Shown: positions 41,463 through 62,031, counted from the stretch's first letter. The stretch is 64,000 nucleotides of DNA from an uncultured Gemmatimonadales bacterium (GCA_963783385.1 CAWANJ010000002.1:20908-84907), one strand, 5' to 3'. Notes: generated by a model not told the origin, from the letters alone. Translations and numbers: made by a program.

Positions 41463-42271
41463 CACTCAGGCCGACCGAGAGTGGCCACGTCTGTGACGGA
41501 ACGCTCATGGCTTTCCTCGATGAAGAGCTCAAGGCAGCGCAACGGGCCGCCGTGGGCCGCCATGTGCACGCGTGCCGTGCATGCGGCGAGCGGCTGGCAC
41601 GGCTGCGGACCGCGTCTAACCAGCTGTCTGGGGCGCTCCCAGCCCTGCACGACGATCCGGTCCTGCCAGCAGACGCCGTCTCCTTATCCCTGACTCCTCG
41701 CGCATTGACCGGGCGGCAGGGCCGGACGGGCCAAGCGCCGCGGAGTCGACGACGGCCCGTCAGCCCGCGTCGTCGGTGGCGGGCCGGTGTGTGGGCAGCA
41801 GCGCTGGTCGTTCTCTCCGCCGGAGCCCTGGCAGCTTTCCCCGGCTCCCCGGTGCACACCTGGCTGTCCCGGAAGCTAGGCGACCTGGCGCGAGGACAGT
41901 CGGCCGCCGCGCGTGGCTCTCCAACGCCGCCGCCGCCCGTGGTCTCCATCCTTCCCTACGAGGGATCGGTCACCGTACGACTCACCGGCACCACGTCCGC
42001 AACCCACGTCCATGTGCGGCTCGTGGCAGGCACCGAAGCCCGCGTCGAAGCGCCGGGCGCCACTTTCCGAGCGGGCCCTGGATTTGTAGACGTTTCGGAA
42101 GGGAGTGAAAGCGAACATATCACAATCGACCTCCCGCGAAGCGTCCGGTCCGCCCGCGTGGAAATCGACGGAAGGCTGGCGGTGATCAAGGATGGGGAGC
42201 TCCTCCGGCGTGTGGGAGCAGCCACGGGAACAAGCGACAGCTCCGTTGAGCTCGGGGGAGGAGTGCCATGA
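41459..42271 (+). CDS. zinc-finger (ZAS-type HxxxCxxC) transmembrane anti-sigma factor
   Basis: The start overlaps the sigma factor stop (ATGA). N-terminal HVHACRACGERL motif, a single TM helix AGVWAAALVVLSAGALAAF, and a periplasmic C-terminal domain. Confidence 0.65.
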   Translation: MTLRPTESGHVCDGTLMAFLDEELKAAQRAAVGRHVHACRACGERLARLRTASNQLSGALPALHDDPVLPADAVSLSLTPRALTGRQGRTGQAPRSRRRPVSPRRRWRAGVWAAALVVLSAGALAAFPGSPVHTWLSRKLGDLARGQSAAARGSPTPPPPVVSILPYEGSVTVRLTGTTSATHVHVRLVAGTEARVEAPGATFRAGPGFVDVSEGSESEHITIDLPRSVRSARVEIDGRLAVIKDGELLRRVGAATGTSDSSVELGGGVP

Positions 42272-42816
42272 CGCGGCTCCTCCTCGCGGTGCTGATCGTA
42301 CCGCTTCCGGCACGTCCAGCGCTTGGTGCGTGGTTGGAGGCGTCGACTGCGATGCGTTCCGTCTATGGGGGTCAGGGGAGCCTATCGACGCCACCGGCCG
42401 GTTCAGCCCCGTCAGCAGCCCACGCCGATACAACCGCAGGCAGTATCGCCGGGCGCCTATCCGCCAACGGAAGTGGCCCCCCGCTGGCCTCGGCGACCGT
42501 CGAGGCCCAGGGCCCGGGCGGCTCCCGCGTGATCCATGCGAACGTGGACGGCGTCTACCGAATCTTGGGACTCAAGCCCGGAGTGTGGTGGCTAAGCGCG
42601 CGCGCCCTCGACTACGCCTCGACGAAGGTCGCGGTTACACTTCCCGCGGGCGGCCACGTGAAGCTCAACCTCGCTCTTGACCTCCAGCCCGTAACTCTGC
42701 CGAGCCTGAAGGTCGCAGCAAAGCGCCGATGTGTCGGCGGCACGCTCCGCATTCGGGAATGGGAACCCGCTCGAAGCAGCGCAGGCGGCAGACCTCCTGA
42801 GCCTCAGCCCGGCTAG
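42268..42816 (+). CDS. CarboxypepD_reg-like domain protein, probably the N-terminal part of a TonB-dependent-receptor-like outer membrane protein interrupted by a frameshift
   Basis: Signal peptide MTRLLLAVLIVPLPARPALGA. CarboxypepD_reg domain GSIAGRLSANGSGPPLASATVEAQGPGGSRVIHANVDGVYRILGLKPGVWWLSARALDYASTKVAVTL. The start overlaps the anti-sigma stop. Its 3-prime end overlaps the next ORF in another frame. Confidence 0.5.
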   Translation: MTRLLLAVLIVPLPARPALGAWLEASTAMRSVYGGQGSLSTPPAGSAPSAAHADTTAGSIAGRLSANGSGPPLASATVEAQGPGGSRVIHANVDGVYRILGLKPGVWWLSARALDYASTKVAVTLPAGGHVKLNLALDLQPVTLPSLKVAAKRRCVGGTLRIREWEPARSSAGGRPPEPQPG

Positions 42817-44566
42817 CGCCTCCGCGACGGTTGACCTCTCCACAGCGGCACGCGGCGTCTTAGCTGGGGCGCCGCAGACGAAGGCGAGCACCCTCTTCAT
42901 GCCGGCGGCAGCGCGGAATGGCGGACGAGTCCTGCTGGACGGGGCGCCGGTTGTGGCTCCCGTGGAGCTTGCCGGACTCCTGTCACCTTTCCCGGCCGGG
43001 GTCTGGGGCACGGTACAGCTCGATCGGGCCGGCGCGCCCGTTCGTTTCGAGGCAGGCGGCATGGGCCTCCTCCGCCTCGACACCCGGGAGCCGAGAGGCC
43101 ACGCGATCCGAGCGTCCGGCTCCCTGGGGCAGCTGCAATCAACCCTGCAGGCTGCGGGTCCTCTAGGAGAGGGCGACTTCCTCGTCGGTGCCCGGGCGCT
43201 GAGCGCGGCCGGTTCCGCTTTTCCAACCGGCTCGAGAGGCTCATTGCCCTACGGGTACGCGGACGTGCTGGCCCGCCTGGACCTTCCGGCTGGCCCGGGC
43301 AGGGTGTCTGCGACGGGCTACTGGAACCGCGAGTCGCTCAGCGGCCCCGGATCGGCCAGCGCTTCGCTCCTGGCGTGGGGAAACACTGCAGGGTCCGTCC
43401 GCTATGTGGTACCTATCGGCCGGGGCGGCATGCGACTGAACGCGGCAGCCGGACGATTCCGGATCGCCGTGCCAGGGGGTAACGCAGAAGCCAAACTTCG
43501 GGAACACTCATTCGATGCACGAGCCGAGGCGGAGGTCTTTGGCCGCGCGGGTCCGGTGGACGTGACCGGCGGCCTCGCGTGGGACGGGGTGCGGCTGTCG
43601 CGCACGGCCCTCGACTCCGCCGATGGCGCGCCGCCCGTTCCTGGGGCCAACCTGGCGGGCGGCGTCGTATCACCCTATCTGGAGGTCAACGTCGACCTGA
43701 CCCCGGCCCTCTCTCTGCGAACCGGTCTGCGGGCCGAGGCCGCCAGCTACGGCGCCCTCGGCTGGGACCCAAGGGCCACTCTGGAGTGGCGTGCGGGACC
43801 CCGGCTATCCGTGTACGCAGCCGCCGGGCGTTCGCACCAGCTCGTGGAGCGTGAAAGCGTCACGGGCTGTGATCCGGCCTCAGGGGTTTGCGGAGCGAGC
43901 AGCCTGTTCCTCGACGGAGCAAGCCATGTGGCTGCCGGCTTCAAAGCCCGGCCGTCGGTCCCGTTGACCCTCGGCCTCGATATGTACTTGGCAAACTACG
44001 GGGAGGCCGTCACCGCTCTGCGGGCCAGGTCAATCGGAGCTGAGATCCGCGGAACGTGGCGAGGGGACGGCTGGAGCACGTGGCTCGACTACTCGCTGGC
44101 CAGCACCCGGTCGTCTGAGCCACTCGGGATCGGCGGCGGCGCAGCACAGTTGGAGCAGCGACTCCTCGCTGGCTTCTCCGCCGAGATTCCCCCGGCCATC
44201 CACGTGGCGCTCCGGCTCCGGGTGAGCGCCGGCTTACCATACACTCCCCTTCCGATAGTGGGCTCGACATCTTCCGCAGGTGCGGGGTCCGGATATCCCT
44301 GGCCCGTAATAAGTCCCCCGGGCTCCGGCGGACAGCCGTCCGCACTCGCACTGCCGGGATCATGGGCGCGGCTAGACGGAACGGTCTCTCGAAGCTGGCA
44401 CGCCCGCGTCTTCGGCGCCGACGTGATGCTCACTCCCTACCTTGAGGTCCTGAACGCCGCCGGAACAAGAGACGCGCCGTTCTACTGGAGCCGCTCCGGC
44501 GCTGCGCAGCGATCAATTGGTGCCGTGCCGCTCCTGGCGGCTGTCGGCGTGCGCTGGGGACTCTAG
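42731..44566 (+). CDS. outer-membrane beta-barrel (TonB-dependent receptor-like) C-terminal part
   Basis: 611 aa rich in G, S, A and aromatics with alternating beta-strand patterns and a C-terminal ...AAVGVRWGL (terminal aromatic then L). The plug-like N-terminus (NPLEAAQAADLLSLSPASA) follows the CarboxypepD_reg ORF in a different frame. Together they span 766 codons, the size of one receptor gene. Confidence 0.5.
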   Translation: MSAARSAFGNGNPLEAAQAADLLSLSPASASATVDLSTAARGVLAGAPQTKASTLFMPAAARNGGRVLLDGAPVVAPVELAGLLSPFPAGVWGTVQLDRAGAPVRFEAGGMGLLRLDTREPRGHAIRASGSLGQLQSTLQAAGPLGEGDFLVGARALSAAGSAFPTGSRGSLPYGYADVLARLDLPAGPGRVSATGYWNRESLSGPGSASASLLAWGNTAGSVRYVVPIGRGGMRLNAAAGRFRIAVPGGNAEAKLREHSFDARAEAEVFGRAGPVDVTGGLAWDGVRLSRTALDSADGAPPVPGANLAGGVVSPYLEVNVDLTPALSLRTGLRAEAASYGALGWDPRATLEWRAGPRLSVYAAAGRSHQLVERESVTGCDPASGVCGASSLFLDGASHVAAGFKARPSVPLTLGLDMYLANYGEAVTALRARSIGAEIRGTWRGDGWSTWLDYSLASTRSSEPLGIGGGAAQLEQRLLAGFSAEIPPAIHVALRLRVSAGLPYTPLPIVGSTSSAGAGSGYPWPVISPPGSGGQPSALALPGSWARLDGTVSRSWHARVFGADVMLTPYLEVLNAAGTRDAPFYWSRSGAAQRSIGAVPLLAAVGVRWGL

Positions 44567-44632
44567 GACGGAACGGCCCGTCGTCGAATCTGTCGGCTCG
44601 AACCTCAGGAAGGCGGCTCTCCCAATGAGAGA

Positions 44633-44672
44633 GCTCCGAGCTTCCGTTCGGAGCTTCCCGGCTGTGAGCCGG
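44633..44672 (+). terminator. tandem GC hairpins downstream of the receptor-like gene
   Basis: The 7-bp stem gctccga-gcttccgt-tcggagc is immediately followed by ccggc-tgtga-gccgg, 67 nt past the stop at 44566. Confidence 0.35.
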
Positions 44673-44959
44673 CACGAACGACGGTCGGGTCCGGTGTACA
44701 GAACAGCCTTCGGTTGCGCCGGTGCTTGCTCTCACCGGACTCAATCGCAACTACATCTAATCCGAAGCGACAGATACGAGATTCTCGGTACTCGCGAAGG
44801 TGCCAATCGTCGATCCTCCTGAATTGTCACTACGGAGTGCAGTTTCCGGGCAGTATTGGCACGGGGGAACCTCATGCACCGCCTGCAACGCCGCAGTCCC
44901 AACTGAGAATGGAAGCCAACCTCACGACAGTACTGGGCCCGAGCGGCGCGGACTGGCAC

Positions 44960-45494: not shown

Positions 45495-45740
45495 GGGAAG
45501 CTGCTCCTGGCCTACGGGACCACGGACGACAACGTGCCGCCCTACAACACGCTGCTCGTCGTGGACTCGCTCATCGCGGCGGGCAAGGACTTCGACCTCA
45601 TCGCGCTGCCCAACCGGCGGCACGGCTTCGGGGCCGAGCCCTACATGGTCCGCCGGCGGTGGGACTACTTCGTCCGAAACCTCCTGGGCGCCGAGCCCCC
45701 GCACGAGTTCCGGATCGGGGAGGAACGCGGGGAGGAGTAG
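45495..45740 (+). pseudogene. truncated copy of the last ~80 codons of the S9 peptidase gene (compare 38447..38693)
   Basis: The translation ...LLLAYGTTDDNVPPYNTLLVVDSLIAAGKDFDLIALPNRRHGFGAEPYMVRRRWDYFVRNLLGAEPPHEFRIGEERGEE matches the end of the S9 peptidase at 36330..38693. It is joined directly to the BNR-gene fragment at 45494/45495. Confidence 0.7.
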
Positions 45741-45776: not shown

Positions 45777-46607
45777 CTAGCCTGGAGGAGCGCCCGTATA
45801 GGATTTCAGCCAGAGGACGATGGCACCGCAGCGCATCGACACCTCGGTGGTCAGCTCGGGCGGAAGCTGGTCGGGCGGGTAGATCTCGACGGCGGTCACG
45901 TCGTACTTGGGGTAATAATCGGCGGGGCGCCCGGTCACGGTCTGGGCGCGGTTCCTGAGCCAGTCGGCTCGCCGACCATTCACAAAGTACTGGGGCTCGC
46001 AGTACTTGCCCAGCGGCCGACGCATCTTCGTGCCGGGGCCGTAGACGTTGCGGGTGGCCAGCAGCGTGCCCAGCTCACCGTGATAGCGCTCAATGTCCCG
46101 CTCCGTGACGAGCTGCCCTCGGCCCGCCGCCACGCGTCGCTCGAACCTTTCCAGTGCGCCGGGCGTTCCGCGCACAGTGGCCCGGAGCTCCTCTTGAGGT
46201 ATCGGCTTGACGGGAACTTCAATGTCGGCCGTGAGGGTCTCTCCGGGGCGCAGGGTGGTCCCACGCTGCACCGGGGCCGACCCGAGGAAGTCGACCTCGA
46301 TCGTGATCCGTCCCGGCTTCACGTCGGCGAACCGGTAGCGCCCATCCTTGCCGGTGAACGCAGTCCGCTCTCGATCGACAAGCTCCACCCGTGCCCCCTC
46401 GACCGGCGAGTGGAAGTCCGCTCGCGTGATCGTGCCCTGGACGACGGCTCCCGTGTCGATCGCCGCCTTCCAGCCTCCGATCGCGGCTCTCCGCGGCGCA
46501 CGGACGGCGCGCAGCGCGGGAGCGCCCGTGAGGATTATGCTGGCTACGGCGGCGACCGAAGCTATTCCGAGCGACGGCGACCAACTGGGGTGCCTCGGGA
46601 GCCTCAA
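45777..46607 (-). CDS. secreted CarboxypepD_reg-like domain protein
   Basis: Signal peptide MRLPRHPSWSPSLGIASVAAVASIILTGAPALRA. Domain VQGTITRADFHSPVEGARVELVDRERTAFTGKDGRYRFADVKPGRITIEVDFLG. A ~150-aa C-terminal region follows. Confidence 0.6.
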   Translation of the reverse strand: MRLPRHPSWSPSLGIASVAAVASIILTGAPALRAVRAPRRAAIGGWKAAIDTGAVVQGTITRADFHSPVEGARVELVDRERTAFTGKDGRYRFADVKPGRITIEVDFLGSAPVQRGTTLRPGETLTADIEVPVKPIPQEELRATVRGTPGALERFERRVAAGRGQLVTERDIERYHGELGTLLATRNVYGPGTKMRRPLGKYCEPQYFVNGRRADWLRNRAQTVTGRPADYYPKYDVTAVEIYPPDQLPPELTTEVSMRCGAIVLWLKSYTGAPPG

Positions 46608-47811
46608 GACCCCGCACCTTCAGCCTGCCCTGTGCCTCGGCCCGGGCCCGCGTTCAGCTCCGGCGCCAGGACCTGCAATCGCGTGTCTCCGGCCGAGGTC
46701 TGCACCACGCTGAAGGCGAGGCTGGTGCCGCAAACGCTCCCCAGCACCGAGTCGACGCGGCGCCGGGCCAGCACCCTGGGTGGTCCGGCGCCAGCGATGT
46801 CCAGCACCTCGACGATCGTGTCGAACTGGCCTCGGAAGAAGCGTGGGGAAGTCGGCTTTGGGTCCGCAGTCGCCCAGTGAGCGTCCGGAATCAGCGCATA
46901 CACCCAAAGTCGGCCCTGGTTGTCCAGCGCGAGCGCGTTCATCATGGCGGGAGGCGGACCCAAAGTATAGAGATCGCTGAGCCGCTTCGGCGAGAGGTCC
47001 TGTGTCGTGGGAAACCAGTCAGCGCGTCGAATTAGGACCCGCGTGACTGCACGGTCGTCGGACCAATGATAGAGTGCGTAGCGCCATAGGCCCGCGGCCC
47101 AAAAACCGCCCTGCTGATCGGGTGCGAGAATCCATTGGTCCAGCGGTCGTAGCCGGGACGATGGCTCCCCAAACGACGCAGGGTGTCCCCGGACGGATCG
47201 AGGAGTTCAAAGAGGCGCGTGTCGCCCTCGCTCGCTCCCAGCGGACGGCTGTGGACGAGGATGGTATCGGGCCCGATCAAGGCCAGGTCACTCACGGGTC
47301 GACGAGTGCGGAACAGATGGGCCACCCGGCCCGCCAATGTCAGGGTGACCATCCGTGCGTTCGAGTTGTCGGCCACATATAGCGTGTCCCCGCGGCCGAC
47401 CAGCACCCTTAGGTGCGAGCCAAATTCACGCGGTCCTGCCCCCGGGCCTCCAATGTCTCGAGAGAAGCGCCCGTGACGACTGTAGACGGCAAGCTGACCG
47501 CCTCCTACTATGGCGCTAACGACGAAGCGGCCCGATCCAAGCCGTCCAACGGAGCAGGCGCGGAACGGTGCGTCCGCCATGATAGAGGCCGGATCCTCGG
47601 AGCTCCCAAGTTGCACGACCGAATCCAACGTGATCGACCCGGCCAGCCGCTGTGCTGTTTCGACCAAGGCAGGCCTGACGTCCGTGTGGAAACGGCTGTT
47701 GCCAGGCTGTGTGTCAGGTGGTGTCGAACGACCACATGCGGTGGATAGTAGACTGAGGCCAGTCCCAGCAAGACAGAGAGCCCTCGGTCCCCTACAAATG
47801 AATCCGAGCAT
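46604..47811 (-). CDS. six-bladed beta-propeller-type lipoprotein (paralogue of 56434..57621), reading frame interrupted around 46963 to 47032; possible pseudogene
   Basis: N-terminal part ORF 47032..47811 (lipobox MLGFICRGPRALCLAGTGLSLLSTAC). C-terminal part ORF 46604..46963 in another frame. Both parts align with the intact 56434 gene (GGPGAGPREF against GDGPGEF, and LWVYALIPDA against DVWARRLLPDT). The combined length of 402 codons matches the paralogue. Confidence 0.55.
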
Positions 47812-47974: not shown

Positions 47975-48527
47975 GCGAACCAACGCCCTGAGATACCTTC
48001 ATCAACGCCATAGCCAGAATCCAAATGGCTCGCTTCATGGCAGTCTTCTTACCGAAGGGTTGACCTCAACCCATCTTCATCAATTTCGACAAATTTGACA
48101 ATGTGTCAACACCGACCCGGTCCAAACCCACTCCACTCCGACGCATTGCGAGTCGATATCGTCGGGCGCCGCCCCTCAGGCCCCCGGCACCACCAGCCCG
48201 ATGCCCTTCGACTCCATGGCCGCGTTGAAAGCCGGAACGGTCGTGCCCACGAGGCGCTCGAAATCGGCCCGCGCCTTCTCGAGCCGCCCCTCGAGGAAGT
48301 GGAACACCTCCACGTCCTGCGTGGTGGGGGCGAGGTCGGGACTCCCGGCCACGTCGCCGGCGCCGTCGCCGACCTCGCCGGCCAGCCACACGAGCTTGAG
48401 GTAGAGCTTCATCTCGGCCGGGTAGGTCTTGACGTCCCCGGCGGCCAGGTAGCGCTGGAACAGGAGGTCCTCGACGGCGAGCGCGCTGTCGTCCACGGCC
48501 CGGGCGGCCTCCATGACCGACGCCGAG
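47975..48527 (-). repeat. copy 2 (in situ) of the duplicated segment whose displaced partner is 44960..45494
   Basis: See 44960..45494. Confidence 0.7.
48095..48109. promoter_or_regulatory. perfect palindrome TTGACA-atg-TGTCAA in the intergenic region upstream (minus-strand sense) of the beta-propeller lipoprotein locus
   Basis: 6-3-6 inverted repeat whose half-site equals the sigma-70 -35 consensus. It lies about 57 nt upstream of the conserved MKRAIWILAMALMKV start at 48038. A partial copy (cgtgtcaac) is kept in the displaced repeat at about 45066. Confidence 0.35.
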
Positions 48528-51394
48528 TCGGCCCGGCCCTGCAGACTCACCGGCAGGTCCTCGATCTGCTTCCGGACGACCTCGGTGCGGTTGATCATGC
48601 TCACCACCGCGTCAATGTCGTCGTACACGGCCTTCCACAGCTTCGTCTGCGCCCGGACGTCCGCGAGCGTGCCGGTCGTGTTCGGGTCCTTGAGGACCGT
48701 GAGCGGGGCGGCGAGCGTGTCGCCCCCGGCCGTCACCGTTACCGTGTACGTTCCCGGGTCCACCAGCGGACCCAGCTTCGGGAGGCTCGATCCCCCAGTG
48801 GTAGATCTCGCGCGTGTTCTTTCCGCGGAAGCGCTTCTCCTCCCAGACGTGGCGGGTGCGCGGCGGGCGTGGTGCGGAGCTTCACCTCGCGCGTGGGCGG
48901 CTAGCGGAGGTCCCACCACACGCGGTCGATCCCGGCCTCCCCGGGGCCGGTCAGGCGCCGCACGACCCGGCCCGAGTCATCGGCGATCGTGACCCGCACC
49001 GGCCCCGTCGCCTTCGACGCCGAGGAAGTAGTCGATGTCGGCCCCGTAGGGCGGGTTCCGGCCCCGCGAGCGGTCGTTGGGCACCCCGCGCGGCGTGCTC
49101 ACGGTGCGGAAGCGGTAGGCGTCGCGCGGCCGGAACAGGTGCGCGCTGCGAGGCGAGCACGGCCGGCGTGAGCTGCTCCAGGGGCGAGATGTCGTCCAGG
49201 ATGTAGAGGCCGCGCCCCTTGGTGGCGACCACCAGGTCGTGGAAGTGGCTCTGCACCGTGAGCCAGGTGACCGGCGCGGGCGGGAGCCCGCTCATGAGCC
49301 TGGTCCAGTGCGCGCCGTCGTCGGGCGACACGTACAGGGCGTCCTCGGTGCCGGCGTACAGGAGCCCGGCCCGCACCGGGTCCTCGCGCACCACGTGCAC
49401 GTAGCTCAGGGGCGAGGCCGGGATGCCGGCGCTCAGCTTCTTCCAGCTCTTCCCGTAGTCGTCGGTCTCGTAGATGTAGGGCCGGCGGTCGTCCACCTGG
49501 TGGAAGTCGACGGAGATGTACGCCTTGCCCCTTGCTGGTGCAGGGAGGGGTCGATGTTGCTGATCGTGCCCCACGGCGGCAGGTCCGGGATGTCGGGGGT
49601 CACGTTCGTCCAGTGCGCCCCGCCGTCCCGGGTCACGTGCACGAGCCCGTCGTTGCTCCCGGCCCAGATGACGCCCGCCTCGAGCGGCGACTCGGCGATC
49701 GCGAACAGGGTGCCGCCGTACTCGACCCCCAGGTTGTCGGGGGTGAGGCCGCCCGAGCTCCCCATGCGGCTCGTGTCGTCCAGGGTGAGGTCGGGGCTGA
49801 TCACCTTCCAGCTCCGCCCTCCGTTCGTGGTCTCGTGCACGACCTGGCTGCCCACGTACACGTGGCTCGGGTCCTCGGGCGAGAGAGCGATGGGCTGCGT
49901 CCAGTTCCACCGGTACTTGAGCACCCTGGCCGGCGAGTCCAGCGACTTGTCGGGCCACGGGCTCACGGACTGCCTGTGGCCGGTCTTCAGGTCGAAGCGC
50001 TCCACCTCGCCCGAGTAGCAGCCGCCCCACACCCAGCGGCCGCTCACCGTGTCGGGCCACGTGAAGCCCGACTCGCAGCCGGCCGTCGTGGTCCAGATGG
50101 CCGAGGAGATCCCGCCCCCGGTGAGGCTGTTGCTGGGCCCCCGCACGGAGCCGTCGTCCTGCATGTTGCTGTACACGAAGTAGGGGACCCGATTGTCCAC
50201 CGCCACGTGGTACATCTGCCCGATGGGGAGCACGATGGGGTTCCAGGAGCGGCCCCGGTCCACGCTGATCATGACGCCGCCGTCGTAGCCGATCATCATG
50301 CGGCGGGGGTCCTGCGGGTCGGCCCACATGTCGTGGTCGTCCCCGCCCCACGGAACCCGCTGGATCGTCTCGCCGCCGTCGTGGGTGACGTACATGTAGT
50401 TCGAGGGGAACCACACGGTGCCCGCGTCGTCGGGGGCGATCAGCATGCGCGTGTAGTAGTGGGGGCGCTCGTCGATGAGCCGGTTCCAGCTCACGATCCG
50501 CCAGCGGTGGCCGCCGTCGTCGGAGCGCCACAGGGAGCCCGCCCCGCCCGTCTCGATGAGCGCGTACACGCGGCTCGGGTCGCTGCGGGCCACGGCCACG
50601 TCGATCTTGCCGACGGGGGAGGGGGGCAGGCCGTCCTCCGCGCCCAGCCGGCTCCAGTGGTCGCCGCCGTCCCGGGTCACGAACACGCCGCTCCCGGGGC
50701 CGCCCGAGTCCTGCCCCCAGGTGTGGATCACGAACTGCCAGGTGCCGGCGAACAGGACGTCCGGGTCGTGGGGGTCGAGGGCGAGCCCCGAGCAGCCGGT
50801 GTGCTCGTCGACGAACAGGACCTTCTTCCAGGTGCGGCCGCCGTCCTCGGTGCGGTACACGCCGCGCTCGGGCTGCTCGCCGTAGCCCCGCCCCATGGCG
50901 CAGGCGTACACGCGGTCCGGGTCGCGCGGGTCGATCACGATGCGCCCGATGCGGCCGGTGGCCTCGAGCCCCATGTGGTGCCAGGTGCGGCCGCCGTCGG
51001 TCGACTTGTAGATCCCGTCGCCCAGGGAGACGTTGCTCCGGATGAAGGGCTCGCCCGTCCCCACCCACACGGTGCTCGGCCGGCCCGGGTCGACCGCGAT
51101 CGAGCCGATGGACTGGACGTCGGTCGAGTCGAAGATGGGCCGCCAGTGGGCGCCGGCATCGGTGGACTTCCACACGCCGCCCGAGGCGGCGCCCACGTAG
51201 TAGACGTTCGGGTTCCCGGGCTCGCCCACCACCGCGCTCACCCGGTTGCCGCCCGGCCCGATGAAGCGGTAGCGGAGCTGCTGCAGGTGGGAGGGATCGA
51301 GCTGCTGGGCGGCGGCCGGGGAGGGGCGGAGCAGCGCCGGCATGGCGAGAACGGCGGCCGCCGCGAGGAGAGCCGGCAGGCGCGCGCCCCTCAT
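48176..51394 (-). CDS. sortilin/Vps10-like BNR (Asp-box) repeat protein, about 1070 codons; the reading frame is interrupted at least twice, so it is a possible pseudogene or carries indel errors
   Basis: ATG 51394 with a GGGAGGG RBS. Signal peptide MRGARLPALLAAAAVLAMPALLRPSPAAAQQ. There are many SxDxGxTW motifs (STDAGAHWR, STDGGRTWH, TEDGGRTWK, TRDGGDHWS, SDDGGHRWR, THDGGETIQ, SVDRGRSWN, TTNGGRSWK, TRDGGAHWT). The body runs in frame H (ORF 49433..51835), switches to ORF 48951..51506 near 49550, and then to ORF 48176..48919. Confidence 0.6.
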
Positions 51395-53556: not shown

Positions 53557-54987
53557 CTACTTCTTCAGGTCGAGGTGATAGAGCCGGATGGCGTTGTCAC
53601 GGAGGACCATGCGGGCCAGCTGCTCGGCGCGCGCGCGGTCGATCTCCCCCTCCCGCATCAGCCGCGTGAGCGCCAGCCCCAGGGCGCGGCGGGCGGTGTG
53701 CGAGGCCACCCAGGCGCCCTCCTCCCAGCCCTGGTCGGGGCCGCCCTGGAAGGAGTCGGTGCCGAACAGGACCTTGTCGGGGAAGCGCATCAGCCAGTGC
53801 TCGAGGACGCCGGCCAGCTCGTCCGGGGCCAGCATCTGGTCCATCATCGAGAAGTCCGCGTACACGTTGGGCTTGCTGATCATGGCCTCCGTCTCGCCCC
53901 ACGCGGGCCAGCCGCCGTGGAGCATGACGAAGTTCGTGTTCCGGAGGGTGGAGTCGTCGAACACCGGCTCCAGTCGCTCGGGCCGCGCCCCGGCCGCGTC
54001 GTAGTAGCCCCCGAACGTCTCGAGCACGTGCAGGTGCACGGCGAGCCCGAGCCGCCCCGCCTCGTGGGCGATGACCCGGAACAGGTAGTCCTCCAGCGTC
54101 TTGTACTCGGCGTGCGTGGGCGCCCCTCCGCCCACGTACTTCGCGTACACGCGGTGGGCCGCCGCCGGGTCCGGGGCCGCGAAGTCCAGGCTCCGCAGGT
54201 AGGCCGCCTCGAACTTGACCGCCACCGCCCCGGCCTTCTCCTGTCGCTCGAGCGTCGGCACGATGACGCGGACGATGTACTCGTCCAGGGAGCGGGGCGG
54301 GGCGCGGAAGCCCAGATCGTCCAGGTAGCGCCGCAGGAGGGCCGCCTCCCTGGGGTACAGGGAGCGCGTGTCCGGCGTGCGCGCCGCCTCTCGCCGCGTG
54401 TCGAGCGGGAAGAGGAGCGCGTCGTCGAACGGGACCCAGCGGAACCGGATCGCATCGAGCCCCGGACCCATGGCCACCCGGTTGGCGAACATCACCTGGA
54501 TCCCGGCCTGGTCCAGGGCCCAGTCCGGGAAGCCGTTCCCCAGCGCCCGGAGCGCGCTGTCCCGGGCCGCCTCCAGCGCCTTCCTCCCGGCGGCATCCGT
54601 ATCGGCGGCCGCGGGTCCGTACAGGGCCGCGGCCGCCCGGGACCACACCGGCGACGCCAGGGTCAGGCGCCACGGGAGGGGGAAGGGCGGGATTCCGTCC
54701 AAAGGAAGGGCGTCGAACTCGGTGTCGGGCGGGGCGCCGGGCGGGATGGGCCGCATCGGGTGCGCGTGGTTGTCGACCGCGCGGATCCCGGCGATGGTGC
54801 GGGCCAGGCCCGAGTCCACGGCCATGGCGCCGCGCCCCGGGCCGCCGCGCGACGCTCCGGCACGTGGGCTCGACTGCGCCGCGACCGGGCCGGCCGAGAG
54901 CAGGAGAGCCAGGGCGAGGACGGACGGGGCGGCGACCGGGGCGCGAGGCAGCGCGAACGGACCGGTCCAGGACGGGCTTCGACGCAT
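53557..54987 (-). CDS. secreted amidohydrolase-family (TIM-barrel metal-dependent hydrolase) protein
   Basis: Signal peptide MRRSPSWTGPFALPRAPVAAPSVLALALLLSAGPVAAQ. Motifs AVDNHAHP, AVHLHVLE, VMLHGGWP and GTDSF are consistent with the amidohydrolase_2 type metal ligands. The frame is intact over 476 codons. Confidence 0.75.
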   Translation of the reverse strand: MRRSPSWTGPFALPRAPVAAPSVLALALLLSAGPVAAQSSPRAGASRGGPGRGAMAVDSGLARTIAGIRAVDNHAHPMRPIPPGAPPDTEFDALPLDGIPPFPLPWRLTLASPVWSRAAAALYGPAAADTDAAGRKALEAARDSALRALGNGFPDWALDQAGIQVMFANRVAMGPGLDAIRFRWVPFDDALLFPLDTRREAARTPDTRSLYPREAALLRRYLDDLGFRAPPRSLDEYIVRVIVPTLERQEKAGAVAVKFEAAYLRSLDFAAPDPAAAHRVYAKYVGGGAPTHAEYKTLEDYLFRVIAHEAGRLGLAVHLHVLETFGGYYDAAGARPERLEPVFDDSTLRNTNFVMLHGGWPAWGETEAMISKPNVYADFSMMDQMLAPDELAGVLEHWLMRFPDKVLFGTDSFQGGPDQGWEEGAWVASHTARRALGLALTRLMREGEIDRARAEQLARMVLRDNAIRLYHLDLKK

Positions 54988-54997
54988 GGGGGCTTCC

Positions 54998-55828
54998 TCA
55001 GCTCATCAGGGTGTCGAGGTGGGCGGCGAGGCTGTCGGGCCCCATCCAGCTGGACTGACAGCCCATGCAGTAGCCCGCCACCTTCCCCTCCGGGTCGACC
55101 AGGACCATCTCCGGCACGCCGGTGACACGATAGCGCACGTCCACGCCGCCCTCGGCCATCACGATCGGGTAGGCGCGGCCGCCGTGCGCCCGCAGCCAGT
55201 CCGCGGCCCGATCGGGCGAGTCCTGGAAGAGGATCCCGAGGATCGAGAACTTCGTGCCCCGCGTGCGCCGCGCGAGGCGGAGGAGGGAGGGGTACTCCTC
55301 CTGGCAGGGCTCGCACCACGTCCCGAAGATCGAGACCAGGACCCAGCGGCCCCGGTAGTCGCGGAGCTGCACGCTGTCCGAGGTGAGCACCCGCCCGTCC
55401 GGCGCGAGCCGCGGCAGAGTGAAGTCCGGGGCCCGCGTGCCCGAGTCGGGGAAGGCCTTCTCGCGGTGGGGCTCCTCGATCGGACCGTGAGCGCACAGAT
55501 AGGTCACCACGCCCCGCTCCAGGGCGCTGTCGGCGCGCTGCTCGAACAGCGCCGCCAGGTGGCCGGCGCGGGCGAAGTCGTGCTCCCCTTCGGCCCGGTG
55601 GATGACCTGGAGCGCGAAGCCCCGGACCAGGGCCTTCTGGGCGGGCGTCGACGCCCGGGACCGAACGGCGTCACTCCCGCACGCGTATTCCAGCGAAACG
55701 CTGCCGTCGGGACTCTCGAGGCGGACCTTTCGGGCGCAGCCGGCCAGCAGGAGGGAGGCGACCAGGACCCCGGCGGCGAGCGCCGCCGGGATCGATCGCG
55801 GGTGGGCGGAGGGGAGCGCTCCGGTCAC
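54998..55828 (-). CDS. TlpA-like thiol:disulfide oxidoreductase lipoprotein (thioredoxin fold, WCEPC active site)
   Basis: Lipobox ...VLVASLLLAGC. The C-terminal thioredoxin-like domain has FTLPRL...GRWVLVSIFGTWCEPCQEEYPSL. An N-terminal ~120-aa extra domain is present. Confidence 0.75.
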   Translation of the reverse strand: MTGALPSAHPRSIPAALAAGVLVASLLLAGCARKVRLESPDGSVSLEYACGSDAVRSRASTPAQKALVRGFALQVIHRAEGEHDFARAGHLAALFEQRADSALERGVVTYLCAHGPIEEPHREKAFPDSGTRAPDFTLPRLAPDGRVLTSDSVQLRDYRGRWVLVSIFGTWCEPCQEEYPSLLRLARRTRGTKFSILGILFQDSPDRAADWLRAHGGRAYPIVMAEGGVDVRYRVTGVPEMVLVDPEGKVAGYCMGCQSSWMGPDSLAAHLDTLMS

Positions 55829-56031: not shown

Positions 56032-56433
56032 GGTCACTGCCTCCAGCGCGGGTGGAGTGCCGTGCGCGGCCGGCCGCAATCGAGGCCGCCGCGCGGGTTC
56101 ATTAGACGCGTACCGAGAGTCCGAACAGAGCCCCCGATCCCAGGACGAAGCCCAGGTCGTACCAGCGTCCCCGGTTCCGGGTCTCGTAAATGCCGACGGC
56201 CGGCCACACGAGGCTGACCAGGAACGCCAGTCCCATGAGGACGCCATGCCAAAGTCCGGCCCAGAATCCAGCCGGGTCCACCAGCGGGTTCTTCCATCGG
56301 GAGCCCGGATCCGGCGAGACCTATCGGGTTCGCCACGATTACACCTCCTCGGCGCGAGGACGACTCCCCTGAAGGTCGGGAATTCCCCGCGTCCAGCCAA
56401 GGGGCACCATCGGGCGCGTAGCCAGGGAGCCAA

Positions 56434-57621
56434 TCAGCGCTCCAGTCGGAAGCGCTCGACGCGCTCGACCCCATCGCGTCCCCTGGCGACTCCGAGCAGG
56501 TAGGCTTCGCCGATCTCCTCCACGTGCAGGCCGGCCGGCGTCTGGATCGACCCGAGCGGTCGGCCGCCCTCGAACACTACCCAGCGCCGGGGGCCGCTCG
56601 CCGTGTCCGGGAGGAGCCGCCGGGCCCACACGTCGCCCAGGCGATCGACGAGGACGCGGTCGAACAGGGGCTGCCGGCGCGGCCGGGACATCGCGGCGTA
56701 GACCCGTCGGAGCCGGGCCGCCTCACGCGCGTCCCCATCTCCGTCCGTCAGCTGTCGGACGGCGTTCGTGAACGCAGAGCGTGGAAGGTCCGGCAGGCCG
56801 CCCAGCACCCGGACGATCCGCAGGAGCCGCCCGTCGACCCTGTAGGTCCGAATCTCGGGAACGTGCGTGAGGACCACGTACACCAGGTCGCCCGCGACGA
56901 CCGCCGCCGGTTGCGCCGTGAAAGGCACGGGCGTGAACCCGAATCTGCGGCCCTCCTTCCAAAGATACAGGGAGGCGCCCGGCGCGACGGCTACGGTATC
57001 CAGGATGCCGGCTCGGGGATCGGCCGTCGCGAATACGACCGAATTCGCGATCTCGCCTTCCTGCGAGTCGGGCCCCGCGCTCGCCGTGCTGCTCTCCGTG
57101 ACGATGCGTCCGCCCGAGACGCGCCCCACGGGGCTTCCGATGAACGCGGTGAGGGGGATCGTTCGGACGAACCGACCCTGGCCGTTGAGCACGCTGAAGC
57201 GCCGGGCCTCGGGGTCGAACACTACGATCGTGTCCGCGGACGTGACCGCGAGGAGGGCGGGGAAGCGGAACTCGCCCGGCCCGTCCCCCTCTCCGCCCAC
57301 CGAACGCACGAGGCGGCCCGTGCCATCGTAGAAGCGGAGCTCGTGCGTGCCGCCGTTGACCACCAGGATACGGCCGTCGTCGAGCTGCGCCACGCCCGTG
57401 ACGGCGAACAGCAGGTCGGCGGAGTCGCCCTGCGCGGCGCCAATGACCAGGTTCGGCTGAGCGGAGACCTGCCAGCCGGACGGACGCTCGATGAGCGACC
57501 GGGGTGTCGCGACGATGCGGACGCCGTCGCTGTCCCGCTCGGTGACCGTCCCGGGGTGACGCTCGCCCCCGCAGGCCGCCGCGGCCAGCGCCAGGCCGAA
57601 GGCCACCGCGACCGCGACCAC
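56434..57621 (-). CDS. six-bladed beta-propeller-type lipoprotein (intact paralogue of the 46604..47811 locus)
   Basis: GTG start at 57621 gives the lipobox VAVAVAFGLALAAAAC. Repeats with GxGPGEF cores (VGGEGDGPGEFRFPALLAV). 396 codons. Confidence 0.6.
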   Translation of the reverse strand: MVAVAVAFGLALAAAACGGERHPGTVTERDSDGVRIVATPRSLIERPSGWQVSAQPNLVIGAAQGDSADLLFAVTGVAQLDDGRILVVNGGTHELRFYDGTGRLVRSVGGEGDGPGEFRFPALLAVTSADTIVVFDPEARRFSVLNGQGRFVRTIPLTAFIGSPVGRVSGGRIVTESSTASAGPDSQEGEIANSVVFATADPRAGILDTVAVAPGASLYLWKEGRRFGFTPVPFTAQPAAVVAGDLVYVVLTHVPEIRTYRVDGRLLRIVRVLGGLPDLPRSAFTNAVRQLTDGDGDAREAARLRRVYAAMSRPRRQPLFDRVLVDRLGDVWARRLLPDTASGPRRWVVFEGGRPLGSIQTPAGLHVEEIGEAYLLGVARGRDGVERVERFRLER

Positions 57622-58042: not shown

Positions 58043-58552
58043 TCAGGAGCCGGGCTGGTTGAAGTTGAACATGTCGACCATCACCTTCCAGTGGCCGTCT
58101 CGCTTCACCCACACGACCAGGTACTTCCCCTCGGCCTTGCGGGTCCCGCCGCCCTCTGCCGGTAGCTCGAGCGTTCCGTGACCGATGTCGTAGGCCATGT
58201 CGCCGGATGCGGAGACCCGGATCACGTTCGGTCCGAACGTCACGGAGGGCAGGCCCAGCATGGCGGCCCAGCCCTGTCGGATCGCGTCGTGGCCGACGGC
58301 GGCCGCCTCACCGGGACCCATCAGGCGCCCGTCTTCGGCGTACATGTCCACGATTCCGGCCGTGTCGTGGTCGGCGACCATCTGCACCCATCGCTGGTCC
58401 AGGCTCCGGATCGAGTCGGCGGCGGCGGCCAGCCCCGCGCTGTCGGGCAGGGCCATCGCGCCAGCCCCCGCCGTGCCCTGCCGCGGAGGCTGGCAGCCTC
58501 CCAGGGCGAGAAGCAGCACGGGCAGGGCGAGCAGTCCCCCGGGTCGTCGCAT
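58043..58552 (-). CDS. SnoaL-like/DUF4440 (NTF2-fold) lipoprotein
   Basis: Lipobox MRRPGGLLALPVLLLALGGC. Then WVQMVADHDTAGIVDMYAEDGRLMGP...GKYLVVWVKRDGHWKVMVDMFN, which is typical of the NTF2-like fold. Confidence 0.6.
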   Translation of the reverse strand: MRRPGGLLALPVLLLALGGCQPPRQGTAGAGAMALPDSAGLAAAADSIRSLDQRWVQMVADHDTAGIVDMYAEDGRLMGPGEAAAVGHDAIRQGWAAMLGLPSVTFGPNVIRVSASGDMAYDIGHGTLELPAEGGGTRKAEGKYLVVWVKRDGHWKVMVDMFNFNQPGS

Positions 58553-58667
58553 GTCGTCCTCCGGTTCGGTGTGACGGTCGATCGACATCGCGCGAGCCCG
58601 GTCCCGCGGCAGGACCGGGTGTCCCAATGTCGACTTACTCCCGCCGCCGCGCCATGCCCCCGGCTCT

Positions 58668-61600
58668 TCAGCCGCCCCCGCCCTGGCCGGCGCGGCGGGC
58701 CTTGTCGGGGAAGGGCGGGTGGGCGGGCGGCGTGACGTCTTCGGTCTTCAGGAGCTCCAGGACCTCGCGGACCGCGCGCTCGAGCTGCGGGTCGCGACCG
58801 GCCGCCCAGTCCTTCGCGTCGTAGTAGACGGGGATGTCGGGCGGCACGCCCTGGTTCTCGGCCACCCAGTGGTCGCCCGAGTAGACGGCGCTGCAGGGCG
58901 AGGTGATGTAGCCGCCGTCGACGAGCGGGTAGGGCACGCACGCCGCCACGAGGCCGCCCCAGGTGCGGGCGCCGATGAGCGGGCCGATGTGGTGCTGGCG
59001 GAACGCCCACGGGAAGTAGTCCCCGCCCGAGCCCGCTCGCTCGTTGATGAGGAGGACCTTGGGACCGAGCACGCCCGCCTCCGGCAGTCGGAAGTCCTTC
59101 CCGCCCGCGGCGTCGTTCGTGATGCCCCCGATGAGCTTCCTGCCCATCATGTCGACCATGTAGTCGTCCAGCAGGCCGCCGCCGTTGAAGCGCTCGTCGA
59201 TGACCGCGCCGTCCCTGTCCTGCTGGGCGAAGAAGTACCGGTTGAAGGAGACGAAGCCCGGACCGCCCGTGTTCGGAACCCACACGTAGGCCAGGCGGCC
59301 GTGCGACAGCGAGTCGACGGTGCGGCGGTTGTCCTCCACCCAGGTGCGCTGCCGGAGCGCGACCTCGCTCCGCAGGGGCACCACGGTCACCGTCCAGGAG
59401 CCCTCGTCCGAGGGCCGGCTGTTGAGCCGCAGGACCGTCTGCCGGTCCGCCGTGCCGTCCAGCCACTCGTACGGATTGTCCCTCGCCGTGAGCTCGCGGC
59501 CGTTCACGGCCAGGAGGTAGTCGCCCTGCGAGGCCAGGACGCCCGGTGCGGAGAGCGGAGCCTCGAGGTCCGGGTTCCAGCTCTGTGACGTGAGGATGCG
59601 AGTGATCCGCCAGCGGCCGTGCTCGGCCTCGAGGTCGGCGCCGAGGAGACCCGTGCGGACCGTGTCCACGGCCGGGTAGTCGCCGCCGCCGGTGAAGCTG
59701 TGGCCCACGCTGAGCTCGCCTCCGACCTGGTCCAGGATGTAGCGCAGGTCCTCGCGGCTCCTCACCCAGGGCACGAGGGGGGCGTAACGAGCGTGCACGG
59801 CGGGCCAGTCGGCGCCGTGCAGGTTGGGGGCGTAGAAGAAATCGCGCTCGATGCGCCACGCCTCCTGGAAGACCTGTCGCCACTCGGCCGCGGGCTTCAT
59901 GTACATGCGCGGCGCCACGTGGATGGCCCCCTCGCCCGGCTTGGGGGGCGCGGCCGTCCCCACAATGTGCCAGCCCTGGCCCTGCTGGAGGAGGATGTGA
60001 CCCCCGTCCTCGGAGAGCGCCATGCGGCGCACGCCGGTGGCGAAGCTCTCCTCCTTGCGCTTCTCCATGTCGAAGCGATGGAGCGTGAGCCCGGGCGCGT
60101 CCGCCACCCGCTCGGCCAGGAAGACCGTGCCGGCTTTGCCGGCCGCCAGCGCCTGGTAGCGGCGCACGGGGACGGGAAGAGCGACGATGCGGCGGGCGAT
60201 CCCGTCGGGGTCGATCCGCACCTGGACGGCGGAGTCGGCCTTCGCGCCGGCCTCGCCGCCCCTGGAACCGGCTCCGGTCTTCGCCCCACCCTTCGTGGCC
60301 GCGGCCCGCGCCGGACTTCTGCCGACCGTTCACGGCTTCCCCGCCCTCCTCGTCACTGCGCGGCGCGAAGGGGGTCGGGTCCCCCGAGCGGAGCACCGCC
60401 ACGTACGCCCCGTACGTGGGCCGCGCCTGCTGGTTGCTCAGGTTGGCCCACCCGCTCGCCAGGCCGAGGTCCGTGCTCGCGAGGAAGTAGAGCCACCGGC
60501 CACCCTTGTCCCAGGCGGGCGAGGCCGCGTCGGCCATGGCGTCGGTGAGCGCGGTGGCCTTCCCCGTCTCCAGCGACCACACCACGATGCGGTGGAAGTG
60601 GTTCGGGTACTCCTTCGCGTAGGCGAGCCACTTCGAGTCGGGGGACCAGGTGAGGTCGAGGCCGCCCCGGTTCATGGATCGTGCCGTCCGTGTCGGCGGT
60701 GACGAGCTTGCCGGACGCGACGTCGAGCACGTGGATGCGGGCGCGCTGGTCCACCCAGGCCATGTGCGTTCCGTCGGGCGACCAGGTGGCCGACCAGACG
60801 TACTTCGTCTCGTCTCCGAGCGAGATCTCGCGCGGCTTCTCGAGCCCCCTCTGGTCGCCGATCAGGAGGCGGTAGCCGTCCCCGGCGTCGGAGAACCACG
60901 CCACCCGCTCTCCGTCCGGGGACCACATGGGCGAGCGATCGGCGGCGCCGGGCGAGCGGGTGAGGTCGCGGACGTCGCCCTCTTCGGCCGGCACGGTGAA
61001 GACTGTCGCCTCGCGCCTCGAACAGGGCCCGCTTGCCGGTCGGCGAGAGAGAGGCGGAGGCGATCTCCCGGCTCACGTCCTCCCAGTGAGGCATGGCCCA
61101 CGGGAAGTCGCCGCGCACGGTGATGTCCAGCCGGTGGGCCTTCCCGGTGGACGGGTCCAGGAGCCAGATCCAGCCGTCCTCCTCGAAGGCGAGGGCGTCC
61201 TTCGCCCCGCCGCCCAGCGTCTTCACGTCCGCGTCCGTGAAGTGGGTGACCTGGTCGAGCGCCTTCGTGGACGGGTCGTACGACCACACGTTGGTCGTGT
61301 AGTCGCGGTCGGAGAGGAACCAGATCCGGTCCCCGAGCCACACGGGCCACGTGTCGGTGGTGCGGTCGTTGGGGAGCTTCGTCTCGTCGAGGGTCTTCCG
61401 GTCCAGGATCGTGAGCGGCGTGTTCTGGCCGCCGCGGTAGTTCCGGAACTCCGTGTCCCAGCGGTCCACGCGGTCGACCACCAGCCGCGTGCCGTCGGGA
61501 GAGAAGGAGCCGCGGAAGGCCATGGCCTCGGGGACCTCGCGTGGCGGGCCGCCCGCGGCGCGGCACCAGCCACAGGTGCGCGTAGGGCACGGGCGCCGAG

Positions 61601-62031
61601 CCGCGGTCCGAGGCGTACAGCACCTCCCGGCCGTCCGGCGTCCACCCGCGGGCGTACGAGGGCGACGGGTGCCAGGTCAGCCGCCGGGGCTCCCCGCCCT
61701 CGGAGGAGACGACCCACACCTGCGGGCTCCCCGTGCGATTCGAGGTGAACGCCACCCACTTCCCGTCGGGCGAGAAGTGGGGGTCGGTCTCGATCGCCGG
61801 GGTCGAGGTGAGGCGTCGCGCCTCGCCCCCGGTCCGGCCGACGACCCACAGGTCCCCGCCGTACTCGAACGCCACCTGCGTGGCGCTGACGGTGGGCTCG
61901 CGCAGGAGCCGCGTGCCGCCCGTGTCCGCCCCCGCCTGGGCGTCCAGGCGCGATGCGGGGGAGAGGAGGGCGGTCAGCGCGACGAAGCAGGCGGGGACGA
62001 CGCGAGCGTGACGCACGGCGGACTCGAACAT
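58668..62031 (-). CDS. tricorn protease homologue (N-terminal beta-propellers plus C-terminal S41 peptidase domain), about 1120 codons; the frame is interrupted at least four times, so it is a possible pseudogene or carries indel errors
   Basis: ATG 62031 with an AGGAG RBS. Signal peptide MFESAVRHARVVPACFVALTALLSPASRLDAQAG. Tricorn N-terminal repeats (VAFEYGGDLWVV...LTSTPAIETDPHFSPDGKWVAFTSNRTGSPQVWVV) in ORF 60862..62268. Further propeller segments in ORFs 60672..61523 and 60353..60994, each in a different frame. The C-terminal PDZ/S41 domain is in ORF 58668..60221. Confidence 0.6.

Follow-up and report, generated by a model that had tools for sequence, protein, structure and literature searches.

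The frame interruptions in five genes between 42.3 and 62.0 kb of the window, a 64,000-nt stretch of a contig that belongs to a Palauibacterales-like member of the Gemmatimonadota, are very probably consensus errors of long-read metagenome assembly in a strain-variable, recombination-scarred stretch. Almost all of the lesions are most likely errors of this kind and not the marks of dying genes, while six lesions common to two long-read-style assemblies could be real. An initial annotation of the window had offered a locally error-prone assembly as one of two explanations; lesions confined to this contig or to others named in long-read style, their absence from probable short-read contigs and purifying selection on the corrected ORFs together support it strongly. 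The assembly behind the window is probably of Nanopore/Flye type (we infer the platform), and the window's own gene fragments P0134, P0127, P0271 and P0277 are recorded on a 412,738-nt contig.

Lesions in the five interrupted genes

The interrupted genes encode a TonB-like receptor, a 402-aa lipoprotein, a sortilin/BNR-like protein, an S9A prolyl oligopeptidase and a tricorn protease (Table 1). Comparison with orthologues, which the initial annotation had proposed for pinpointing each indel, places the lesions at single sites and confirms the interruptions that had been read in all five genes. Across them, 16 frame-shifting lesions and one nonsense codon are mapped, and 14 of the 16 are +1 insertions. 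The minimum shift counts given earlier (1, 1, at least 2, at least 3 and at least 4, in the order above) are right or conservative, the mapped counts being equal or higher.

Once the extra bases are taken out, each ORF reads through at a family-typical length, with dN/dS of 0.17-0.33. The family-like lengths that had been claimed are recovered: 1070 aa for the sortilin gene against 1077-1098 aa in its full-length relatives, 1119 against 1121 aa for tricorn, about 717 against at least 713 aa for the oligopeptidase, and 402 aa for the lipoprotein, here called S1.

Table 1. Coordinates of interrupted genes, intact neighbours and extragenic or upstream lesions in the window
Feature	Position	Strand	Length	Remarks
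Extra A, GAG[A]ATGG	22275	+		only verified frameshift in 11-33 kb
CarboxypepD_reg + TonB-dependent-receptor-like barrel gene	42268..44566	+	766 codons once corrected	Pfam
S1 lipoprotein, probably beta-propeller	46604..47811	-	402 aa once corrected	one G missing at 47180
Sortilin/VPS10-BNR gene	48176..51394	-	1070 aa once corrected	Pfam
S9A prolyl oligopeptidase	51394 (about)..53548	-	about 717 aa once corrected	Pfam
Amidohydrolase-like gene	53557..54987	-	476 aa	intact in window and in L051
TlpA/AhpC-TSA thioredoxin-like gene	54998..55828	-	276 aa	intact; Pfam
Extra bases at 56341 and 56308	56308..56341	no strand		window-only; stretch without large gene
Six-bladed propeller paralogue	56434..57621	-	395 aa	intact; Pfam DUF5128, weak match
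Tricorn protease (S41/PDZ/PD40)	58671..62031	-	1119 aa once corrected	

The TonB-like receptor gene changes frame once, owing to one additional A/T at 42753, and Pfam puts its two domains in two overlapping ORFs. The extra base is absent from a contig 99.5% identical to the window (L059), in which the gene is one ORF. In a distant homologue (L056) both domains also lie in one ORF, and the alignment reaches window position 44557. A metagenome scan with this gene returned a 34%-identical relative as its sole match. The S1 gene is intact in L003, L057, L058, L060 and L061, where the ORF is 452 aa long and its lipoprotein signal begins at residue 51. The window shares its deletion at 47180 with L046 and L062, and a Logan contig from run ERR11523667 has it. 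L059 carries a +1 where the window has a -1, and 47180 is an unstable site with three indel states among different long-read-style contigs.

Pairwise alignment with the intact gene of L003 locates six +1 insertions in the sortilin gene (49534, 49527, 49145, 49022, 48853 and 48779), and BLAST against L057, L058 and L060 likewise gives exactly six one-base gaps. The only other damage is a nonsense codon (TAC>TAG, 48903-48901), and dN/dS of the corrected gene is 0.20. The oligopeptidase contains four +1 insertions, at 52607, 52182, 51885 and 51811. Pfam finds both its Peptidase_S9_N propeller and its Peptidase_S9 catalytic domain, split over frames in the window and continuous in L003, L051 and L058. 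The gene is intact in L003 and in the same-species contigs L051 and L052, which lack all four lesions, and its corrected form has a dN/dS of 0.33.

The tricorn gene lies largely in a divergent allele block (58.2-61.5 kb) and combines three window-only +1 insertions, at 61560, 61004 and 60674, with a -1/-2/-2 patch at 60328-60305. Only after frame correction is the full tricorn domain set present in one product of ~1100 aa. The corrected protein is 90% identical to P0147, which has Tricorn_N, Tricorn_2nd, Tricorn_C1, PDZ_Tricorn and Peptidase_S41 domains, and dN/dS is 0.23 against L001 and 0.17 against the same-species L052. An apparent insertion at 58042, seen against L001, is not an insertion against same-species contigs.

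The interleaved amidohydrolase, TlpA-like and propeller genes match intact orthologues, as had been described. The TlpA-like gene is of equal length in L050-L055, and the propeller paralogue is 395 aa in all relatives, with a pS of 0.009 against L052. The two extra bases in the stretch without a large gene are missing from L050, L051, L052, L053 and L055.

The clustering, judged non-random in the initial annotation, holds on counting: there are 19 small indels in 19.8 kb against one in 22.3 kb (binomial P about 7e-6). The control for this count is window 11003-33254 compared with a 99.6%-identical same-species contig, which reveals one single-base indel, at 22275, and one 22-nt intergenic indel. 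The earlier estimate of at most one frame event upstream agrees with that single base, which splits a 742-aa HEAT-repeat protein into ORFs starting at 20901 and spanning 22276-23232 and is absent from L047, L048 and L049. Other upstream signals from a codon-usage frame tracer were rejected: Pfam resolves a shift at 13651 into a plain pyrD/pyrF gene boundary, and the flags at 14791, 20541-20575, 26324 and 26473 have no indel in the same-species contig. Divergence from one MAG rises from 0.3% at 11-33 kb to about 2% at 51-64 kb, where some blocks reach 10%, and the error-rich stretch coincides with this higher divergence. Within genes, the lesions are grouped in patches of 755-1250 nt; the sortilin gene has seven within 755 of its 3219 nt (P about 1e-3), and sub-gene clustering in three genes combined also gives P about 1e-3.

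Comparison with other assemblies of the species

Five same-species contigs from JGI, NCBI and Logan (L051-L055; 9-17 kb, 97-98% identical to the window) are probable short-read assemblies. The same-species short-read contigs cover the tricorn and oligopeptidase genes, and the sortilin and S1 genes lie outside their span. None of the window's tricorn lesions occurs in L050-L055. An identical, uninterrupted tricorn protein of 1121 aa (P0267) is encoded by six other same-species contigs, five of them the probable short-read ones, and by nine contigs in all. In one of these five, the amidohydrolase and oligopeptidase genes are intact alongside tricorn.

A second long-read-style assembly, ERZ25039549 contig_97047 (L046/L050), is a 317-kb contig from another sample that is about 99% identical to the window and bears a long-read-style name. 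Its tricorn gene is intact. Over 14 kb, 22 one-base indels against 119 substitutions separate the contig from the window. Its private indels include those at 58589, 54603, 54317, 54176, 49842 and 48894, and three of them (+1 at window equivalents 54603, 54317 and 54176) break the amidohydrolase. L059, from the same sample and also with a long-read-style name, has private indels at 44397, 40128, 39991, 39860, 39062 and 46900; a 448-aa ORF that the window keeps intact is broken by private indels of this contig.

Six lesions are common to the window and L046/L050: 47180, 49534, 49527, 49022, 48853 and 52182. The last is the sole oligopeptidase lesion in common, the other three being absent from L050. 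It is also the only shared site that the short-read contigs cover, and they lack it; all carriers may come from one technology. Gene callers have recorded the truncated fragments as separate proteins of 517, 653, 195 and 318 aa.

Origin of the lesions

Nanopore-only consensus sequences carry frameshifting indels in a coverage-dependent manner (PMC9262707), and one soil and sediment MAG pipeline combines Flye with a single round of Medaka (PMC12313526). On the assembly-error explanation, the contig would be accurate over most of its length, with errors gathering at about 42-62 kb, where the species is strain-variable and scarred by recombination: alleles diverge in blocks, a 6-kb island is present and remnants of gene ends occur. 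There the consensus would have gained single extra bases in sub-kilobase patches that fell by chance in the longest genes. The local enrichment may have arisen because reads from co-occurring strains were collapsed, or because the chosen haplotype was locally poorly covered. A simple low-coverage model fits poorly with the stretch at 58.7-60.3 kb, which is the most divergent in the tricorn block and has zero indels. Context-specific base-calling error could be another cause: two assemblies have an additional A in the context G[A]AT at four sites unrelated to one another (22275 and 42753 in the window; 58589 and 54603 in L050).

Indels usually described for Nanopore are homopolymer deletions, and the lesions here differ. 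The initial annotation had attributed the damage to homopolymer indels, citing runs at about 61540-61560 and about 49550. This part of its assembly-error proposal is not supported: 12 of 17 inserted bases are unlike both neighbours, none of the mapped lesions lies in a homopolymer run of at least four, and neither at about 61560 nor at about 49530 is a homopolymer length in error. The spectrum is not the homopolymer concentration expected of long-read error, and other modes of consensus error are still compatible with it. A TCGA methylation motif occurs at only four to five lesion sites.

One possible, though doubtful, form of assembly error is a chimeric consensus of two co-occurring strains, in which both alleles are emitted and yield a +1 at polymorphic third-codon positions. 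With orthologues as the reference, 12 of 13 insertions lie next to a third codon position, mostly as G+C doublets, and the lesions lie within moderately diverged blocks (1-4%). Two sites look like blends of relatives' alleles: at 61004 the window resembles a mixture of two real alleles, GAC-ATC and GAA-GTG, and at 52182 relatives carry CGC or CGG and the window CGCG. However, most sites have no second allele in same-species references, several insertions obey the G[A]AT context rule instead, and only 12 of 17 inserted bases avoid both neighbours, where about half is expected by chance (P about 0.07). The stricter proposal that every insertion represents both alleles of a third-position G/C SNP was set aside, having direct support from same-species references at two sites only.

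Against assembly error, six lesions coincide in two assemblies; random errors would not coincide, so the shared lesions must stem from systematic error or from mutations that both really carry. It is unlikely that the genes underwent genuine recent pseudogenisation, in which a strain, or a lineage common with its sister, lost S1, the sortilin-like protein and the oligopeptidase, and this strain also lost tricorn and the TonB-like receptor, perhaps following recombination events that reshaped the locus. In favour of this reading, the coincidence spans different samples, the S1 deletion extends to the Logan contig, a nonsense codon stands beside the sortilin insertions, and real recombination scars are seen in three contigs of the region. 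Moreover, the sortilin and S1 lesions lie outside short-read same-species coverage. Against it, bacterial pseudogenes show a deletion bias, and the insertion-only spectrum is its opposite. The lesions form sub-kilobase patches and are not spread along dead genes, and dN/dS of 0.17-0.33 with one nonsense codon in five genes leaves no other sign of decay. Each long-read-style contig has different private lesions in otherwise conserved genes, and the probable short-read contigs that cover tricorn and the oligopeptidase all lack those of the window. The decay of extracellular protease genes, the second explanation in the initial annotation, is not supported for most lesions and may hold for the six shared ones. 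A little less probable again is the specific reading that these six are real and that a Palauibacterales-like lineage recently inactivated a secreted or periplasmic protein-degrading block beside a recombination junction through insertion-biased, patchy mutation; such damage might arise, for example, from error-prone repair synthesis during DNA import.

Programmed recoding, whether by ribosomal frameshifting or by transcriptional slippage that restores full-length enzymes, is exceedingly improbable. The reconstructed lengths are exactly family-typical and a few sites recur in the second assembly, as recoding would allow, but genes have up to six shifts without a common slippery motif, and lesions also fall outside genes (56341, 56308). 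Uninterrupted ORFs are found at every site in 85-98%-identical orthologues and in same-species contigs. The initial annotation had named orthologues with the same interruptions at the same sites as an alternative outcome; their ORFs are instead continuous throughout, and orthologues without the sites already contradict recoding.

Relation to known systems

The lesions resemble the indel errors of Nanopore-only MAGs in that they are single-base, truncate gene calls, are private and are absent from short-read assemblies of the population. The IDEEL-type signature (PMC9262707) is found here too, with corrected ORFs of normal length. Unlike those errors, they are mostly insertions outside homopolymers and are localised to one 20-kb strain-variable stretch, the Nanopore platform itself being presumed. 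As in bacterial pseudogene clusters, neighbouring genes of related function (secreted peptidases and a receptor) are interrupted, and a few lesions occur in two assemblies. The region differs from such clusters in having no deletion bias, relaxed selection or spread of lesions along genes; its lesions vary between 99%-identical contigs, and tricorn and the oligopeptidase are intact in other covering assemblies. A frame change is needed for a full-length product, as in the programmed ribosomal frameshifting of prfB, dnaX and IS elements. In contrast to those systems, shifts are numerous within a gene, and slippery motif, stimulator and orthologue conservation are all absent.

Taken at face value, the contig would imply loss of the tricorn protease, the prolyl oligopeptidase, the sortilin-like protein and the TonB-like receptor. 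If the lesions were real, they would record that one strain recently lost extracellular proteolysis, a modest ecological observation. Under the assembly-error explanation, the density of errors can differ about twenty-fold between parts of one long-read-style contig and peak where strains differ, which means that genome-wide quality scores can hide local damage.

Gene map and placement of the lesions

The window has a G+C content of 72%, and the nearest relatives of its genes lie in metagenome-assembled genomes (MAGs) of Gemmatimonadota, several of them labelled Candidatus Palauibacterales, an order described in PMC10469786. Because spurious ORFs are plentiful in G+C-rich DNA, coding frames were traced by GC3 profiling and by dynamic programming on codon usage with frame jumps allowed, and each jump was checked against homologues. 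Two long ORFs were rejected: a spurious 377-aa ATG ORF at 45747-46880 (+), which runs antisense to the genuine genes S2 and S1 and lacks a Pfam match, and a 1164-aa ORF at 20901-24395, an artefact whose frame stays open through two genuine genes, one for a 742-aa protein and one for a 388-aa HD-domain protein. The gene content of the flagged span, 42268-62031, was assigned from Pfam and orthologues; its limits, as the initial annotation had drawn them, coincide exactly with the starts of the receptor and tricorn genes.

When one genome per species was scanned with the intact amidohydrolase, three related loci proved useful. L001 shares 96% amino-acid and ~85% nucleotide identity with the window, L003 shares 82-98% nucleotide identity, and L002 is likewise related; the tricorn, oligopeptidase, and sortilin genes are uninterrupted in all three. 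In pairwise nucleotide alignments, the window's insertions are clean single extra bases within well-conserved sequence, and the sortilin context at 49534 and 49527 reads CAG[C]AAGGGG[C]AAGG. Alignment, mainly to orthologues, placed 16 frame-shifting events in the five genes reported as interrupted, 14 of them +1. None of the 16 lies in a homopolymer of four or more bases, and the homopolymer indels first proposed are not supported. Once the extra bases are taken out, the frames are open and the gene lengths family-typical, as had been reconstructed. The corrected genes have dN/dS of 0.23 (tricorn against L001; 0.17 against the same-species contig L052), 0.33 (oligopeptidase), and 0.20 (sortilin).

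Genes and lesions of the window, with island ORFs and upstream indels
Feature	Position	Strand	Basis or remark
Indels in 11003-33254	extra A at 22275; 22-nt intergenic difference		alignment to L047-L049
Island: 448-aa ORF	39476-40822	-	
Island: ECF sigma factor	40854-41462		
Island: putative anti-sigma factor	41459-42271		
CarboxypepD_reg + TonB-like barrel (receptor)	42268-44566	+	ECF sigma factor, putative anti-sigma factor 5' of gene
Receptor lesion, extra A/T	42753	+	sequence comparison
CarboxypepD_reg protein S2	45777-46607	-	Pfam/orthologues
402-aa lipoprotein S1	46604-47811	-	Pfam/orthologues
S1 lesion, one G missing	47180	-	sequence comparison
Sortilin/VPS10-BNR protein	48176-51394	-	Pfam/orthologues
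Sortilin lesions, extra bases	49534, 49527, 49145, 49022, 48853, 48779	-	pairwise alignment
Sortilin nonsense codon TAC>TAG	48903-48901	-	sequence comparison
S9A prolyl oligopeptidase	~51394-53548	-	Pfam/orthologues
Oligopeptidase lesions, extra bases	52607, 52182, 51885, 51811	-	pairwise alignment
Amidohydrolase-like protein	53557-54987	-	Pfam/orthologues
TlpA-like thioredoxin	54998-55828	-	Pfam/orthologues
395-aa propeller	56434-57621	-	Pfam/orthologues
Cdd1-like and SnoaL-like small proteins	between 57.7 and 58.6 kb	-	Pfam/orthologues
Tricorn protease	58671-62031	-	Pfam/orthologues
Tricorn lesions	extra bases 61560, 61004, 60674; small messy patch 60328-60305	-	pairwise alignment

Lesion density and other assemblies of the species

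The database protein P0135 (742 aa) is 100% identical to the ORF at 20901 over its first part. Three contigs encode it (L047, GCA_964593775.1; L048, JGI 3300031256; L049, Logan SRR9710701), and they match window 11003-33254 at 99.6% identity with only two indels. One frameshift in 22 kb, in line with the estimate of at most one event upstream, thus stands against 16 (plus two intergenic) in 19.8 kb (P ~7e-6 by our arithmetic); the clustering is real and, as claimed, non-random. Lesions are also bunched inside genes: the sortilin gene (3.2 kb) has seven within 755 nt, the oligopeptidase four within ~800 nt, and the tricorn gene four within ~1250 nt, while the other kilobases of these genes are lesion-free. 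This bunching is contrary to the prediction of uniform neutral decay in a dead gene.

The corrected sortilin and tricorn proteins served as search queries, and cluster members were then listed. The window's truncated fragments are on record as P0134 (653 aa), P0127 (195), P0271 (517), and P0277 (318) from a 412,738-nt contig, a size that suggests a long-read assembly. An identical 1121-aa tricorn (P0267) occurs on nine contigs, of which six were retrieved: L050 (ERZ25039549 contig_97047, 317 kb, with a Flye-style name) and L051-L055 (9-17 kb; JGI, NCBI, and Logan), presumably short-read assemblies. In a multiple alignment with these six, all tricorn lesions, oligopeptidase insertions 52607, 51885, and 51811, and both intergenic insertions are confined to the window, and insertion 52182 to the window and L050. 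The probable short-read contigs carry none of the window's lesions within their span, which excludes the sortilin and S1 genes.

Extra bases private to L050 (58589, 54603, 54317, and 54176) break the amidohydrolase, a gene that the window and L051 have in intact form. Over 14 kb, this sister contig (L046/L050) differs from the window by 119 substitutions and 22 one-base indels, a ratio implausible as real coding-sequence divergence. L059, from the same sample, is 99.5% identical to window 48186-38676, lacks the receptor-gene insertion, and has +1 at site 47180 where the window has -1; indels of its own cut the receptor short at 725 aa and split the 448-aa ORF that is whole in the window. The broken genes thus differ from one long-read-style contig to the next, and the probable short-read contigs have none. 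Two assemblies show an extra A in G[A]AT repeatedly, at unrelated sites (window 22275 and 42753; L050 58589 and 54603; in full GAG[A]ATGG, CCG[A]ATGC, TCG[A]ATGT, and CCG[A]ATAC), which hints at a context-dependent error and could reflect systematic base-calling errors or methylation.

Origin of the lesions

The lesion cluster as a whole is very probably an artefact. It shows the known pattern of long-read metagenome assemblies in which indels truncate genes, and is no new biological feature; the only unusual traits are that the lesions are mostly insertions, lie outside homopolymers, and are sharply localised. Published work records coverage-dependent frameshifting indels in consensus sequences built from Nanopore reads alone (PMC9262707), and describes a soil and sediment MAG pipeline (Flye, then one Medaka round) that yields contigs named in the same style (PMC12313526).

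The error-rich stretch coincides with heterogeneity of the species. From one and the same MAG, the window is 0.3% diverged at 11-33 kb and ~2% at 51-64 kb. The tricorn block at 58.2-61.5 kb is 3-10% off six mutually identical same-species contigs, with flanks at 0-0.3%; its protein is 94% identical to the species allele, and a database search found no other alleles matching it. The block has two possible readings: a third allele formed by recombination, or a chimeric consensus. Its dN/dS (58200-61500) is 0.17. The sortilin gene is mosaic, made up of blocks whose pS against L003 is ~0.1 or 0.25-0.33, and 38.4-48.5 kb holds an island and remnant gene ends. The probable short-read contigs L051 and L052 stop at ~51.4 kb, and L047's contig ends at ~37.4 kb by our extrapolation from record coordinates. 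Reads of co-occurring strains may collapse in this stretch, or the chosen haplotype may be thinly covered, and polishing would then fail there. At 61004 the window (GACAGTCTTC) looks as if GAC-ATC of L001 had been merged with GAA-GTG of the same-species contigs, and at 52182 it has CGCG versus CGC or CGG in relatives; allele blending as the source of the insertions is weakly supported overall.

Of the two explanations offered initially, error-prone assembly is favoured by lesions mostly private to long-read-style contigs, and gene decay is not supported for most lesions. Six of them (47180, 49534, 49527, 49022, 48853, and 52182) are present in both the window and its sister contig and therefore require either systematic error or real mutations in a common lineage. 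The S1 deletion recurs in run ERR11523667, on a Logan contig that aligns to the window without gaps at 99.8% identity. The short-read contigs contradict 52182, the sole shared site that they reach, and it is improbable that these six, at the least, are real. Programmed recoding can in practice be ruled out. With the cluster read as an artefact, the by-products are a corrected gene map, a warning on local error density, and structural observations.

Probable recombination scars and variable segments

Two direct repeats, each 86.5% identical, pair 38448-38750 with 45495-45797 and 44974-45493 with 47999-48521. The remnant copies represent the 3' ends of a DPP-IV-like gene (35958-38693) and of the sortilin gene, and they adjoin at 45493/45495. 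Their layout is also present in L059, and the junction in L046; the layout is absent from the relatives with intact S1 (L003, L057, L058, L060, and L061). The junction looks like the scar of homology-facilitated illegitimate recombination or of circularised-fragment integration, rather than a misassembly, because the layout recurs in another sample.

The 6.2-kb island at 38750-44974 (GC 0.65 versus 0.72) is absent from relatives and also holds the barrel gene. Its sigma/anti-sigma/barrel set is a cassette similar to FecI/FecR/FecA; in JGI metagenomes, the barrel gene has nothing closer than one 34%-identical relative. The S2-S1 block (45495-47999) matches certain lineages at 98.4-98.9% identity, whereas their flanking genes reach only 84-93%, and seven contigs from different MAGs and samples share the S2 protein (276 aa) at 100% identity. 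These identities suggest that the 2.5-kb cassette was exchanged horizontally in the recent past. Relatives carry an extra DsbA/thioredoxin-like gene (~806 nt, 201-212 aa; L003 16942-17748) between S1 and the sortilin gene, which is missing at 47999/48000 in the window and also in L059. The oligopeptidase is hypervariable in its N-terminal region: L052 (GCA_964593775.1 CAZQKA010000044) has a 261-nt deletion and smaller indels at the amidohydrolase/oligopeptidase boundary (~53550-53806), and L051 has a 24-nt insertion in the signal-peptide region.
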